Source of the DNA: an uncultured Selenomonadales bacterium
GTDB taxonomy: Bacteria; Bacillota; Negativicutes; Selenomonadales; Selenomonadaceae
Direction: 5' to 3'
DNA: 64,000 nucleotides
Assembly (NCBI GenBank): GCA_937877545.1
Contig: CALFJE010000093.1
Span: 27,519 to 91,518 of the forward strand
In this document: positions 1,698-57,023 of the stretch, one piece after another
Layout of the letters: each line of letters begins with the position of its first letter
Numbering within the stretch: position 1 is the first letter of the stretch
Made by a program: the position numbers and the translations under genes
The notes under the pieces: model-generated
Seen by the model: only the letters and a program-made list of their open reading frames with translations
Databases searched by the model: none
Told to the model about the DNA's origin: nothing

Positions 1698-1767
1698 TTA
1701 GGAATTAGGAACTAGGAACTAGTAAAACCTGTTCCCTGATTCCTGATTCCTGATTCCTAATCCCTGC
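1698..1767. repeat. Inverted arrays of 7-nt units forming a long imperfect hairpin between the fabH-like stop and the GT2 start
   Basis: TTAGGAA TTAGGAA CTAGGAA CTAG - taaaacc - TGTTCCC TGATTCC TGATTCC TGATTCC TAATCCC. The AGGAAY and RTTCCT arms are complementary. Confidence 0.85.
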
Positions 1768-1789
1768 TTAGAATACTTTTTACGGTGGC

Positions 1790-2794
1790 TTATGTCAAAT
1801 TTCCAATGGCAGAAAGGTCTGCGATACAGCCCGCCCAACTCAAGCCCACGCCGAAGCCCGCCAACATGACGCGTTGCAAACCTGCCGCGCCGTGAGCCTT
1901 AACAACCTGCTCAATCGCCAACGGCACGCTGCCCGATACGATGTTGCCCGTGGTCTCTATGTCGTTGTGAAACGGCACGTCGTTTAAGTTCGCCTTATCG
2001 CGCAGGTAAGTCATCATGAACTTGTTGGCTTGGTGGAAAATGCAATAGTCCAAGTCGGCGCGGGTAATTTGCGCGGAAGCAAGAACGTTATCGACGAGCT
2101 TTGGAATTTCGCGGAGCGTGAAGTAGGTTATCGCCATGCCGTCCATAAAGACTTCGTAGTTGGAGCGGGTGTTGTGATTGTCGTCGGTGGTGAAGACTTC
2201 GGGATTGTCGCGGGGCGGATACTTACTGCCGCCGACGGGAATTATCAGCTTATCGTAACGCGAACCGTCAGAGCCGAACACGAACGCCTTCAAGCCTTCG
2301 GTATCGCCGCCGTCGAGCCAAGTGGCAGTAGCTCCGTCGCCGAACAGCGGGCGCGCCGACTTATCCGCCGTGTTGATATACTTGCTGTAAACGCTTGACG
2401 TAAGGAACAGCACATTTCGGACAAGCCCCGCCTCAATTAAACCCTTGGCAACGGCAAGCCCGTAAACGTAGCCCGAACAGCCCAGCCCGATGTCCAAACT
2501 CCCGACGCCTTTGCTTAAGCCCAAGCGGTCTTGAATCTGCGCGGCGGTGTGCGGCATCTGATAATCGGGGTGTTGCGTGCACAGCAAGATAAAATCCGTC
2601 GCGTGGCGGTCAAGCCCGTATTCGGCAAAAAGTTTCTCGGCAGCTTCCAATGCCAAATCGCCCGCAGTCTCCGCCGTCACGACGTGCCGACTTTTCACGC
2701 CGATTTTCTTCATGAATCGCGCCTCAACCAAGCCGTCGTTTTGCTCAATCTGCGCGGGCAAGTAAGAGCTTATCGCCCGTATCCTCGCAAACAT
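1790..2794 (-). CDS. 3-oxoacyl-ACP synthase III-like (FabH/KAS III family) condensing enzyme
   Basis: 334 aa. Catalytic Cys context GLGCSGYVYGL, His motif IFHQANKF, Asn motif TGNIVSGSVP. Family-typical length. Confidence 0.8.
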   Translation of the reverse strand: MFARIRAISSYLPAQIEQNDGLVEARFMKKIGVKSRHVVTAETAGDLALEAAEKLFAEYGLDRHATDFILLCTQHPDYQMPHTAAQIQDRLGLSKGVGSLDIGLGCSGYVYGLAVAKGLIEAGLVRNVLFLTSSVYSKYINTADKSARPLFGDGATATWLDGGDTEGLKAFVFGSDGSRYDKLIIPVGGSKYPPRDNPEVFTTDDNHNTRSNYEVFMDGMAITYFTLREIPKLVDNVLASAQITRADLDYCIFHQANKFMMTYLRDKANLNDVPFHNDIETTGNIVSGSVPLAIEQVVKAHGAAGLQRVMLAGFGVGLSWAGCIADLSAIGNLT

Positions 2795-17922: not shown

Positions 17923-18954
17923 ATGATGATTATGTCGACAGATCCTGATATTATTGCGAAACAACAGGAGCAAACTTGGGACAGCATAGTAAAGACCAAA
18001 AAAAGTCCGGCTGAAATGCGTCGCGATTTATCCAATAACACTAACCTCAGCAATCTGATGCTCAATCCGATTTCGCGATACGATTTACCCGGCGGCAGAA
18101 GGAGCACGGTAATGACAGGGGCGGGCAACGACTCGCTTAAAATCAGTACCGCCAATGTTAAAGTTTATGCCGGCACGGGCAATGATACCATTGATTTCAG
18201 CTCCGGCTATGGAAATTACGTACTTTATCACGCCGGTGACGGTAACGATAAAATTATCGGCTTTGCCCAAGATTATACAGCACAATTCGCGGAGGCGCAG
18301 GTCACGATTCAATTTACAACAGTGGAAGTTACACCACGATAAACGGCGGTTCGGGTAATGATACCGTTTCGCTCAACAGTTCGGGGCACCACAATGTTAT
18401 TCAATATGCGGCGGGCGACGACAACGATAAAATTTACAACTTTGGCACGACGGATTCTATCAGCATAACGGGCGCGAAGTATACGCGTTCAACCGTCGGC
18501 TCCGATGTCGTGCTTACGGTCGGTAGTGGCAAAATAACGTTGGTCGGCGCGAAAGGTAAGACGCTTAATATCAAAGGCACTCAGAAGGCGGCAACGTCGG
18601 CGCGACGATTAACAACTCTCTTTCAAGCAAGGCGATTTACGGCACGAGCTATGCCGATTCGATTTACAATACGGGCAACAAGGTCACGATAAGTACGGGC
18701 ACGGCTAACGACACCGTCACTACGGGAGCAGTGTTAAGGCGGACGCGGGCAATGATTATCTTGTTTCGTTCAGCAACGGCTCTAAGGTTACGCTAACGGG
18801 CGGCAACGGCGACGATACCTTCTGGGGCGGCTTAGGCAACGATGTCATTTACAACTTTGCCGATAACGACCTCTTGCAAATCACGGGCACGTTTAACTTC
18901 ACGGCTACGGCTTTCCACGTCAACAACAAAACTTACAAGCTCAGCGGCACGTAA
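17923..18954 (+). pseudogene. Frameshifted calcium-binding (RTX / GGxGxD-type) repeat protein gene
   Basis: Repeats GAGNDS, GTGNDT, GDGNDK, GGAGHDS, GGSGNDT, AGDDNDK, GTANDT, AGNDY, GGNGDDT and GLGNDV can be read only by changing frame near 18270, 18597 and 18725. The final frame ends at TAA 18952-18954. Confidence 0.7.
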
Positions 18955-22830: not shown

Positions 22831-22848
22831 AACCTGCCTCCCGGTGGC

Positions 22849-22918
22849 TAGTTCCTAGTGGCTAGTAGCTACTCCCTACTCCCTACTCCCTACTCCCTAC
22901 TCCCTAATTCCTGATTTA
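22849..22918. repeat. Ten perfectly phased heptamers: TAGTTCC TAGTGGC TAGTAGC (TACTCCC)x5 TAATTCC TGATTTA
   Basis: Read directly. Lies in the 5' region of folP (- strand) and upstream of the RND operon promoter. Confidence 0.9.
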
Positions 22919-22950
22919 GCATTATAGCGCATTGCCGGCTTAAGTTCAAA

Positions 22951-45557: not shown

Positions 45558-46160
45558 TTAAAACTTATTCCAATGAATACACTCGCTGAGCTTGGGATAA
45601 ATCTGCGCGGGATATTCGGCGTCTTGCGCGGCGTGACCGATACCAATCATGCACGGCAGGATATAACCTTCGGGACAAGCCGCCGCCGTCAAAATCTCTT
45701 CGGGCTGTTTACCCGTCGGGATCCGCATTGTGTAGGCAAGCCCCTCGTTCGTCGTCGCCAGGAAAATATTTTCAATCACGCACCAGATCTCCGCGAAGTC
45801 CATAAACCGCCGACCGAACGCCTCCTCCTTGATGATTCGAGCGTCGCGTTTGAAGAGCGGCAGGATTATGCAAGCCGCCTCCTCGAACATGGAGCGTTGC
45901 CTCGGAAAGGCTATCTTGACCATTTCTTGGAAAGGATTATTCGGCTCGTCGATACTGCATGTCAACGGCTTTATCGTGTCGAGGATTCGTACTTTAACTG
46001 CCGCGTCCGTGACGACGATAAAATTCCATTTGCGCATGTGGTCGAAGGACGGAGCCTTAATCCCCGCGTCGATAATGCGTTCGATAATTTCCTTGTCGAC
46101 GGGCTGACCGGTGAATTGCCGCGTGGTGCGTCGACGCGCTATGACTTCCCCAAACTCCAT
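45558..46160 (-). CDS. Nitroreductase-family flavoprotein inserted between rplN and rplX
   Basis: 200 aa. [31 protein letters not shown] pattern. Its ATG shares a base with the rplN stop (TAATG). Confidence 0.8.
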
Positions 46161-46842: not shown

Positions 46843-47556
46843 TTAAGCCTTAAGCACGACGGGCGTCGACCGATAGCCGATACCCATCCTGTCGATACCC
46901 ATATCAATCAGCGTCAAAAAGTGTTCACGCGTCCGAATGCAACCGCTACCCTTAACCTTAATCTTGTCGCCGCAAACGTCCAGCATTACCTTAATAATTT
47001 CGGGCGTCGCGCCGTGAGCCTCGTGCCCCGTCAAAAAACCCGTGCTCGTCTTCACGAAATCGGCTTTCGCTTCAATCGCGCAGGCGCAGGCTTTTTTAAC
47101 CTCGTCGACGGTCAGCGCGTCGGTCTCGAAGATAACCTTAACCTCGGTGCCGAACTCGTGACAGGTCTCGACGACGGCGGCAATTTCCTCGGTGACGGCG
47201 TCCCATTTGCCGGAGCGAATCCAACCGTAATTGGCTACGATGTCAAGGTCTTGAATCCTCCAATTGCGGCAATACTCCCGCGCCTGCAGAACTTTGGAGG
47301 CGGTGGTCGACGTGCCGAACGGAAAATCGCAGACGACGCAAATGCCGGTTGAAGTGCCCGCCGTCAACTCGGCGGCTATCGGCAAAGACGAAGGATTGAT
47401 ACAAACCGTCGCGCAACCGAAATCCACGCCCTCTTGAATGTAGCGGCGAATGTCCGCCTCGGTGAATTCGGGCTTCAAAACCGATTGGTCGATGTAAGCG
47501 GCGAGTTCCTTGACGGTCATATCGGCGGCTTTTTTATTCGGACGAGTCATAATCAT
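46843..47556 (-). CDS. deoC: Deoxyribose-phosphate aldolase (DeoC family) inserted between rpmC and rpsQ
   Basis: YIDQSVLKPE.T..DI, VCINP, KVIFETDAL, Schiff-base Lys context ADFVKTSTGF, VKGSGCIRT. Confidence 0.8.
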   Translation of the reverse strand: MIMTRPNKKAADMTVKELAAYIDQSVLKPEFTEADIRRYIQEGVDFGCATVCINPSSLPIAAELTAGTSTGICVVCDFPFGTSTTASKVLQAREYCRNWRIQDLDIVANYGWIRSGKWDAVTEEIAAVVETCHEFGTEVKVIFETDALTVDEVKKACACAIEAKADFVKTSTGFLTGHEAHGATPEIIKVMLDVCGDKIKVKGSGCIRTREHFLTLIDMGIDRMGIGYRSTPVVLKA

Positions 47557-49351: not shown

Positions 49352-49370
49352 TTCGTTTCCTCCTTTCCAC

Positions 49371-49398
49371 TGATTCCCAATTCCTGATTCCTACTTAA
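49371..49398. repeat. Short heptamer array TGATTCC CAATTCC TGATTCC TACTTAA between rpsS and rplV
   Basis: Read directly. The last unit contains the rpsS stop codon (TAG on the - strand). Confidence 0.8.
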
Positions 49399-52475: not shown

Positions 52476-52582
52476 AATAATTCCTCCTTAGTCGGGAGTC
52501 GCTGCTCCCAACGTTGCTCCGCGACAGTTCCCTTGACGGGCGGAATTTTTCCCGCCTAGCAATCTGCCGCGTCAAAGCCGGT

Positions 52583-52656
52583 TAGGGATTAGGGATTAGG
52601 AATTAGGAATTAGGAATTAGGATTTTCCTACTCCCTACTACCTACTACCTACTTTA
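52583..52656. repeat. Phased heptamer arrays (TAGGGAT)x2 (TAGGAAT)x3 TAGGATT - ttcc - TACTCCC (TACTACC)x2 TACTTTA between tuf and rpsJ
   Basis: Read directly. The two arms are partly complementary with periodic mismatches. Confidence 0.9.
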
Positions 52657-52737
52657 TCAGCAACAGCGGCCGGCAATCAGTTCTTGGGCTGACTACCGAC
52701 CGCCTCACCGATTTATTGACTGAGTGTCAACAATTTT

Positions 52738-56089: not shown

Positions 56090-56639
<550 letters not shown>

Positions 56640-57023
56640 TTACTTTTTCTTCGCCTTAGCTTTCTTTGCGCCGTATTTTGAACGCGCTTGCTTGCGGTCT
56701 TGAACGCCGGCGGTATCGAGGGAGCCGCGAATGATATGGTAGCGAACACCCGGCAAATCCTTGACGCGCCCGCCGCGAATTAAAACAACGCTATGCTCCT
56801 GCAGATTATGCCCTATGCCGGGGATATATGCAGTGACTTCGATAGCGTTGGTCAAGCGGACACGTGCGACCTTACGAAGTGCCGAATTCGGTTTCTTGGG
56901 CGTCGTCGTGTATACGCGAGTGCACACGCCGCGTTTCTGCGGGCACTCCTTCAGAGCCGGAGCGGTGGATTTCTCCTCCAACATCTGACGACCTTTCCTT
57001 ACCAATTGGTTTATGGTTGGCAT
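56640..57023 (-). CDS. rpsL: Ribosomal protein uS12
   Basis: [12 protein letters not shown]....[12 protein letters not shown]. Confidence 0.98.

Follow-up and report, generated by a model that had tools for sequence, protein, structure and literature searches.

Tandem heptanucleotide arrays at the tuf-rpsJ junction and other operon junctions of a Selenomonadaceae genome appear to belong to a known class of intergenic repeats

What are tandem repeats of seven nucleotides doing between tuf and rpsJ, within the most conserved operons of a bacterial genome? The 64,000-nucleotide stretch analysed here (the window; contig CALFJE010000093.1 of an uncultured Selenomonadales bacterium; also part of an 89.9-kb contig in bioreactor metagenome ERZ922531) carries such an array at positions 52583-52656, the target of this report, and further arrays near 1698, 22849, 49371 and 56577. 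The initial annotation regarded these arrays as new at ribosomal operon junctions in a Bacillota-like genome and suggested that they might serve as platforms for ribosome release or re-initiation, as RNA processing or stability elements, or as slippage-prone tuners of translation. Our data agree with it that period-7 arrays occupy five intergenic sites, where sequence and Tandem Repeats Finder (TRF) concur in all five cases, and that they form a family with units common to several sites, but lead to a different view of what they are. Judged by their sequences, the arrays fall into an already described class, that of intergenic heptanucleotide repeats, and take the form of convergent pairs reported from Xanthomonas. 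On balance we also consider it probable that they are slippage-driven, dispersed and mostly neutral spacer DNA, in which the hairpin, the stop triplets and the motifs resembling Shine-Dalgarno (SD) sequences are incidental.

On the plus strand the target reads (TAGGGAT)x2 (TAGGAAT)x3 TAGGATT ttcc TACTCCC (TACTACC)x2 TACTTT. In the mRNA, which has the minus-strand sequence, it runs GTAGGTA GTAGGTA GTAGGGA GTAGGAA, then AA, then four copies of TCCTAAT and two of CCCTAAT, which places a purine-rich arm at the 5' side and a pyrimidine-rich arm at the 3' side of an imperfect hairpin. The arms can pair in several registers spaced 7 nt apart, with 78-86% complementarity, and RNA folding gives -22.9 kcal/mol (z -3.3 versus shuffles). 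Hairpins with periodic mismatches had been proposed for this array and for the one at 1698; folding confirms both, and the array at 56577 folds as a third. The whole tuf-rpsJ spacer folds at -112.2 kcal/mol (z -8.2), and the array is only one of its four separate folding domains, the others being two conserved stem-loops after tuf and a block resembling an S10 leader.

Period 7 stands out in the window as a whole. TRF finds it at all five sites, reporting the target as 52582-52653, and a strict autocorrelation filter over periods 4-15 returns arrays at period 7 (and its multiple 14) only. A looser filter returns four period-7 arrays; in the 100 first-order Markov simulations of the window that set the chance expectation, the mean was 0.18 and no run gave more than 2. 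Although called genes cover about 91% of the window, all of the arrays are non-coding. They are restricted, as had been claimed, to junctions and leaders of minus-strand genes, and the flanking genes are those originally named (tuf-rpsJ, rpsL-rpsG, rpsS-rplV, FabH-like-GT2-like and folP, GT2 being glycosyltransferase family 2). Every array stops a few bases short of a canonical GGAGG.

At three sites (1698, 52583 and 56577) the 5' and 3' arrays have partly complementary units and are separated by a loop of 2-8 nt. The mRNA of the 1698 array is (AGGAATC)n, loop, (TAGTTCC / TAATTCC)n, ends 8 nt before a GAGGAG SD site and folds at -28.1 kcal/mol (z -4.4 versus shuffles); the rpsL-rpsG array at 56577, which belongs to a separate unit family of (GCTGTTA)n followed by (CTAAAAG / CTGAAAG)n, folds at -22.9 kcal/mol (z -4.2). 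The remaining two sites form no hairpin. In front of folP (22849; fold z +0.7) there are (TAGGGAG)x5, then TAGCTAC TAGCCAC TAGGAAC TAGCCAC, then GGGAGG and ATG, and the sense strand has the (G3 N4)x5 motif of a G-quadruplex; the rpsS-rplV array (49371; fold z +2.0) has the units GGAATCA GGAATTG GGAATCA in its mRNA and no second arm. Most two-arm arrays of close relatives, like three of the window's five arrays, are more stable than their shuffles (z -2 to -8), and three of all the arrays subjected to folding do not fold at all.

Several simple identities for these structures could be set aside. An intrinsic terminator is ruled out, as no terminator-like site was called at 1698, 22849 or 52583 and no U-tract or T-run follows any of the five arrays. 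No Rfam family matched the window at its gathering score, and neither a known RNA family nor a tRNA-derived element was found in it, the only hit being a weak S10-leader match beside the target. Folding energies of sense and antisense strands showed no consistent difference, for which reason selection at the RNA level through G-U pairs was dropped. The order of purine and pyrimidine arms was also rejected as a marker of the direction of transcription, because the reverse complement has the same order and the real contrast is between convergent and divergent pairs.

The window's EF-G is 93-95% identical to proteins of Selenomonadaceae bacterium and Quinella sp., so that the description of the genome as Bacillota-like holds and a cyanobacterial origin of the window is rejected. 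In order to see how arrays behave among close relatives, the str, S10 and spc regions were gathered via EF-G homologues and the identical S12 protein, and 20 ribosomal junctions were mapped in each. These loci (given here by number, as in L002) represent about 11 distinct genomes with EF-G 92-97% identical, L005/L009 and L012/L013 being taken as near-duplicates; the arrays could be aligned across only a few genome pairs, which made alignment-based covariation analysis inapplicable. In each locus with arrays, period 7 alone is strongly enriched. Four loci, namely Quinella sp. 2Q5 (L003), L005, L008 and L009, or about three independent genomes, are array-free with compact spacers of 12-34 nt. 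Elsewhere arrays cluster at S12-S7, tuf-S10, L23-L2, S19-L22, S17-L14 and S8-L6, and the mapped loci have none at the tightly coupled junctions S7-EF-G, S10-L3, L3-L4, L4-L23, L22-S3, S3-L16 and L16-L29.

Comparison of single junctions shows that the arrays turn over quickly. Five genomes have arrays at S12-S7, and these belong to at least three unit families unrelated to one another: the window, L002 and L011 have GCTGTTA/CTAAAAG, L004 has GGGACAA/TAACTCC and L007 has GGTTAAT/CTAATAA. At tuf-S10, arrays are present in three genomes (the window, L004 and L014), in the exact slot that a TTGAAA-17-TATAAT promoter block occupies in seven relatives, and L005 and L009 have neither. With the slot of the S10-operon promoter taken by the array and no promoter-like site found in the window's tuf-rpsJ spacer (52476-52737, minus strand), rpsJ is probably expressed in this genome by read-through from tuf. 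Unit number, scored at orthologous sites in the relatives, differs as well: L006 has 4+5 units at S17-L14 where L012/L013 have 3+4, the 3' arm at L23-L2 comprises 3.5 units in L002 but 4.5 in L012, and arm lengths are often unequal. At L006 3832-3901, (TTAGGAA)x4 stands beside (GCATTAC)x3-4, two unrelated families with no complementarity and no fold, which shows that adjacent arrays need not form a hairpin. Ribosome release or re-initiation, RNA processing and slippage tuning thus receive no comparative support, as presence and unit family change among genomes this closely related.

Whole elements also recur at different junctions. The GGGACAA/TAACTCC element is found at three (S12-S7 and S8-L6 in L004, S19-L22 in L007), and its copies align from end to end with 90% column identity, whereas its arms match each other at only about 4 of 7 positions. 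An irregular 19-mer, AGCTCAACCGCTAAAAGCT, from the rpsL-rpsG (S12-S7) array of the window is intact at S19-L22 in L002 and present with one mismatch at S17-L14; in JGI metagenomes it gave two chance matches only, both within coding sequence. These shared idiosyncrasies indicate that the arrays are interrelated by copying and did not arise by independent slippage alone.

A second type of dispersed insertion was seen in the same regions, a palindromic element of about 100 nt that starts with GCAACGTGACGTTGCATCC and is not built of heptamers. It lies at the L5-S14 and L29-S17 junctions and in the S10 leader, each in a different one of three genomes (L004 ~20108, L008 ~19401 and L014 ~5063, in locus coordinates).

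The closest precedent is in Xanthomonas, where each of two genomes has about 185 (GGGANTN)n arrays of 2-26 tandem copies, 89-93% of them intergenic and mostly between co-oriented genes, on average 28 nt from the next 5' neighbouring open reading frame (ORF) and 160 nt from the downstream ORF; the two species differ in array length and sequence, and 70-75 convergent opposite-strand pairs per genome are capable of forming stem-loops (Rehm et al. 2015, PMC4692102). The same work groups the GGGGA(T/C)T repeats of Nostoc with them. The window resembles this system in its units (AGGAATC, GGGAATC, GGGATTA and GGGAGTA at 1698, 49371, 52583 and 22849), in the convergent opposite-strand pairs at 1698 and 52583 and in a location mostly between co-oriented genes; in the relatives' two-arm arrays of the GGGANTN-type family the purine arm comes first in all, as read by eye. 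It differs in that the array at 56577 consists of GCTGTTA / CTAAAAG, so that families without G-runs occur here, and in that the arrays end at the next SD sequence. G-quadruplex potential (at least four G3 tracts) is limited to the folP array in the window and is lacking in the target. The phylum is also a different one and our sample much smaller.

Location within ribosomal operons has a precedent too. One Beggiatoaceae genome has 169 sets of TAACTGA repeats, mostly just upstream of start codons (MacGregor 2015, PMC4679880), with 2-6 copies each and some of them inside ribosomal-protein operons (fusA, L3, S4, S1). They are direct repeats almost throughout (one set is inverted), overlap the site of an SD sequence that is missing and are patchy among relatives; the unit is shared with cyanobacteria and Bacteroidetes; S1, Csp and CsrA are discussed as possible binders (PMC4679880). 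The window arrays are similarly placed at internal junctions of ribosomal operons just upstream of start codons, but are always followed by a canonical GGAGG, and no tandem TAACTGA was found in the window with one mismatch allowed. With ribosomal operons reported from Beggiatoaceae (PMC4679880) and convergent pairs from Xanthomonas (PMC4692102), the novelty initially claimed for such junctions does not stand.

The comparison with cyanobacterial short tandemly repeated repetitive (STRR) sequences that the initial annotation drew is apt, since the window arrays are likewise tandem, of 7 nt, dispersed and non-coding. Unlike STRR in the strict sense, which belong to heterocystous cyanobacteria, they are short (at most six units) and their host belongs to the Selenomonadaceae, and their units presumably differ from the classical STRR1-3 consensus. 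In the broad sense of heptanucleotide simple sequence repeats (SSRs) they show at least three head-to-tail copies above chance, a non-coding location and a unit number that varies between relatives. Heptamers are the most abundant long SSR class in many genomes, and polymerase slippage has been proposed as their source (Mrazek 2007, as cited in PMC4679880). Geobacter metallireducens has families of 4-5 tandem heptamers (GGACCGG; MTYCTGA) at dozens of loci, annotated as putative regulatory (PMC2700814); these are tandem and multi-locus like those of the window, but their units differ and some copies are intragenic. According to a Nostoc preprint, heptamer arrays affect promoter reporters to a modest degree (bioRxiv 10.1101/2022.06.06.494920). 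We found no paper that connects such repeats with Selenomonas, Quinella or Negativicutes, and the Quinella genome paper (PMC9585023) does not mention them. Our results extend heptamer arrays beyond cyanobacteria, Xanthomonas and Beggiatoaceae to a rumen Selenomonadaceae clade, where they occupy the most conserved operons.

How widespread is the unit of the target? A scan of species-representative genomes (596 Gb) for the pattern (TCCTAAN)x3.5, with about 0.3 matches expected by chance, found it in at least 119 stretches. The matches listed include many Nostocales, Bacteroidota, Clostridia/Oscillospiraceae and Chloroflexota (Anaerolineaceae) as well as Verrucomicrobiota, Acidobacteriota, Kiritimatiellia and an actinomycete. 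Among these listed matches, 103 of the 109 arrays with enough flank are non-coding, the flanking genes are arranged in tandem in 61 cases, convergently in 26 and divergently in 6, and a purine-type partner array lies upstream in 26 cases versus downstream in 3 (binomial p ~1.5e-5); many of the listed arrays, several of those from Nostocales among them, have such a purine-rich partner just upstream, as in the window. In viral contigs the partner is upstream in 15 cases versus downstream in 2, and 97 TCCTAAN arrays were counted there, whereas three heptamers with the same bases in scrambled order gave 17, 24 and 15. Heptamer arrays are thus far above chance in general, with a four- to sixfold preference for TCCTAAN.

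Taken together, these observations fit a model of slippage and copying. A typical element is non-coding, repeats its 7-nt unit 3-6 times and mostly comprises two related arrays on opposite strands that converge, which gives either strand a purine-rich arm, a short loop and a pyrimidine-rich arm in this order. Arrays would grow and shrink through replication slippage in steps of 7 nt, and entire two-arm elements, as their sequence identity shows, have been copied between junctions. They would persist only where they do little harm, in the transcribed spacer from a stop codon or promoter to the next SD sequence, and across bacteria they are rare in divergent promoter regions among the matches listed. 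Transcribed as part of a polycistronic mRNA, most would form a moderately stable, register-slipping stem-loop, and because this has no U-tract, transcription would read through. The stop triplets and the motifs resembling SD and anti-SD sequences may follow simply from the favoured unit being TAGGRAN/TCCTAAN, without any need for selection. The lack of conservation, the one-armed or non-folding cases and the exchange of families at one junction argue against a specific selected function, and conservation gives no support to a regulatory role. In annotation, such arrays should not be taken for regulatory RNAs, terminators or small ORFs.

Several observations weigh against the view of mostly neutral, slippage-driven spacers. 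The original claim that the arrays accompany mostly very highly expressed genes is true insofar as ribosomal junctions are occupied about three times more often than others (24 of 206 versus 5 of 135; odds ratio 3.4, p ~0.01, from hand counts of gene tables and with small numbers), although the effect is modest and concerns location, not expression; selection or a process linked to transcription could explain it. The claim of stop codons in all frames is likewise true as a tendency and not as a rule: 18 of 24 clade arrays have them on the sense strand, more than the 11.0 expected from composition shuffles, and 22 of 24 on the antisense strand, the arrays not being independent of one another, while several AGCTGTC and GCATTAC arrays have no stop in one frame. 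The arms resembling SD and anti-SD sequences, for their part, are real in the TAGGRAN/TCCTAAN family and absent from the AGCTGTY/CTRAAAG (window rpsL-rpsG) and GCAATGC/GCATTAC families. At S17-L14, L006 has added a unit to each arm by comparison with L012, which resembles maintenance of pairing, and the excess of TCCTAAN over scrambled heptamers in viral contigs (97 versus 15-24) counts on the same side. Slippage itself is inferred and not directly observed in the window arrays, and in its simple form does not explain the fixed purine-then-pyrimidine polarity. The ribosomal enrichment, the stop excess, the unit preference and above all the convergent polarity keep a functional reading or a novel mechanism in play at a low probability.

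The alternative that survives best, though we regard it as unlikely, is that the arrays are selected cis-acting RNA elements, which might protect mRNA 3' ends, mark processing sites, or uncouple or tune the next cistron, with slippage providing heritable tuning. The arrays are always transcribed and lie directly before the SD sequence; the folding beyond shuffles, the over-occupancy of ribosomal junctions and the unit added to both arms in L006 would fit such a role, as would a distribution that, among the matches listed, avoids divergent promoter regions like that of repetitive extragenic palindromic (REP) elements. On the other hand, there is no positional or sequence conservation in close relatives, four loci with conserved operons are array-free, one-armed or non-complementary arrays such as TAGGAAT beside GCATTAC in L006 remain unfolded, arm lengths are often unequal, and stability has no sense-strand bias. 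The RNA functions initially proposed are further disfavoured by the real SD sequence that is always kept downstream. If the arrays did modulate ribosomal-protein stoichiometry, they would constitute a new layer of control, but the present evidence points the opposite way.

The dispersal of whole elements raises the question of mobility. REP elements, bacterial interspersed mosaic elements (BIMEs) and REPINs are, like the window elements, short imperfect palindromes that are extragenic, transcribed, located at gene 3' ends or within operons and dispersed in families, and REP elements are in some cases mRNA stabilisers. REPs are, however, of fixed length and not composed of tandem 7-nt units, and REPINs are tied to REP-associated tyrosine transposases (RAYTs). 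That our arrays are miniature elements like REPs, REPINs or miniature inverted-repeat transposable elements (MITEs), moved by an enzyme encoded elsewhere, would account for two-arm copies with shared idiosyncrasies at different junctions and in different genomes, and for the extragenic, palindromic, REP-like distribution. We nevertheless consider it improbable, as neither target-site duplications nor fixed termini are visible, unit copy number varies continuously, and ectopic recombination between arrays could yield an identical pattern; no transposase turned up near the copies in the 64-kb window and the 20-kb loci of the relatives, although no search was made for RAYT or IS200/IS605-like genes.

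A related proposal, to which we give a slim chance, is that the two-arm elements are a self-propagating class of DNA that is copied whole between operon junctions and that their polarity is the footprint of directional synthesis. On either strand the purine-rich (G-containing) array runs 5' to 3' towards the centre of the element, here as well as in many phyla and among viral contigs. This might come about if both 3' ends at a break were extended reiteratively and then joined, or through fold-back priming. If true, it would amount to a widespread and undescribed bacterial route to new spacer DNA, distinct from slippage in situ.

A multi-site platform for a protein appears equally remote, whether the binder acts on the RNA (CsrA on GGA, ribosomal protein S1, a cold-shock protein) or on the DNA. 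TAGGRAN does offer a GGA every 7 nt, a few unit families recur over many loci and genomes, TCCTAAN is preferred over its scrambled versions, and binders have been proposed for the heptamers of Beggiatoaceae and Nostoc (PMC4679880; bioRxiv 10.1101/2022.06.06.494920). At least three unrelated unit families at equivalent positions, sometimes at one junction, are nevertheless a poor match for a single binder, the GGA motifs are mostly paired within the hairpins, and no candidate binder was identified here. Finally, assembly or sequencing artefacts, suggested by the way in which short-read metagenome assemblies can mishandle repeats, are practically dismissed by the occurrence of the same type of array in relatives' independent assemblies from different studies, the identity of the L012 and L013 arrays, and the position of the arrays within long contigs with intact genes on either side; exact unit counts from such assemblies may still be unreliable and need caution.

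The clade amounts to a compact natural experiment, in which arrays at a few junctions with near-identical flanking genes have been gained, lost or replaced by another family dozens of times. The regularities of the whole class across phyla, namely the TAGGRAN/TCCTAAN preference and the fixed convergent polarity, can now be tested.

The immediate surroundings of the arrays deserve a brief description, and the coordinates are collected in Table 1. The target abuts the 5' end of the putative S10 leader, which matches RF03136 (the S10-Clostridia leader) over its full length but weakly (18.9 bits; gathering score 35.1). On its other side are the two post-tuf stem-loops, one short and the other with a near-perfect stem of about 24 bp and no U-tract; they are present in nearly all relatives, border the array but lie outside the array proper, and have no Rfam match. 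The FabH-like gene, named after its FabH-like domains, is at 1790-2794, and the gene downstream of the 1698 array, which starts at 1682, appears GT2-like from a VSVILTSYN...DDGSTD motif in its translation, recognised by eye. folP (Pterin_bind domain) lies divergent from an HlyD/AcrB efflux operon. Since promoter-like sites directly precede the folP and 1698 arrays, both are probably the 5' ends of leaders.

Table 1. Positions of the heptamer arrays and of adjoining features in the window
Feature	Position	Strand	Basis
Two-arm heptamer hairpin, FabH-like-GT2-like	1698..1767	minus	TRF 1699-1766; fold; inverted repeat
Promoter-like TTGACA-17-TATTCT	1770..1798	minus	consensus match only; immediately upstream of 1698 array
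Single-polarity array, folP 5' leader	22836..22918	minus	TRF 22844-22906
Promoter-like TTGAAC-17-TATAAT	22921..22949	minus	directly upstream of folP array
Three-unit array, rpsS stop to rplV SD	49371..49398	minus	TRF 49370-49392
Probable S10 ribosomal-protein leader	52489..52583	minus	weak RF03136 match; block conserved in all relatives
Target array, tuf-rpsJ spacer	52583..52655	minus	TRF period 7, 97% and 95% matches
Two stem-loops directly after tuf stop	52656..52733	minus	conserved block in spacer comparison; fold of whole spacer
Two-arm array filling rpsL-rpsG spacer	56573..56639	minus	TRF 56574-56640

The S10/spc region of this clade also contains insertions of other kinds. In the window, two metabolic genes sit inside the S10/spc operon, a nitroreductase-family gene (45558-46160, minus strand) between rplN and rplX and a DeoC/LacD-family aldolase gene (46843-47556, minus strand) between rpmC and rpsQ, where relatives have spacers of 11-20 nt. 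A glyoxalase gene follows rplF in L003 and L004, an ORF of 120 aa lies in the tuf-rpsJ spacer of L003, and L006 has an opposite-strand gene in place of tuf. The S3-L16 spacer of L002 holds a non-repetitive insertion of 378 nt (18017-18394), while rpsC and rplP overlap or abut in the other genomes examined. Outside this region, a 33-bp unit is repeated 5.2 times in tandem at 48-218 of the window; the 11-residue repeat that it encodes (NANHAAQIEDL-like) belongs to the C-terminal part of the partial GT2-like glycosyltransferase, which runs off the start of the window.

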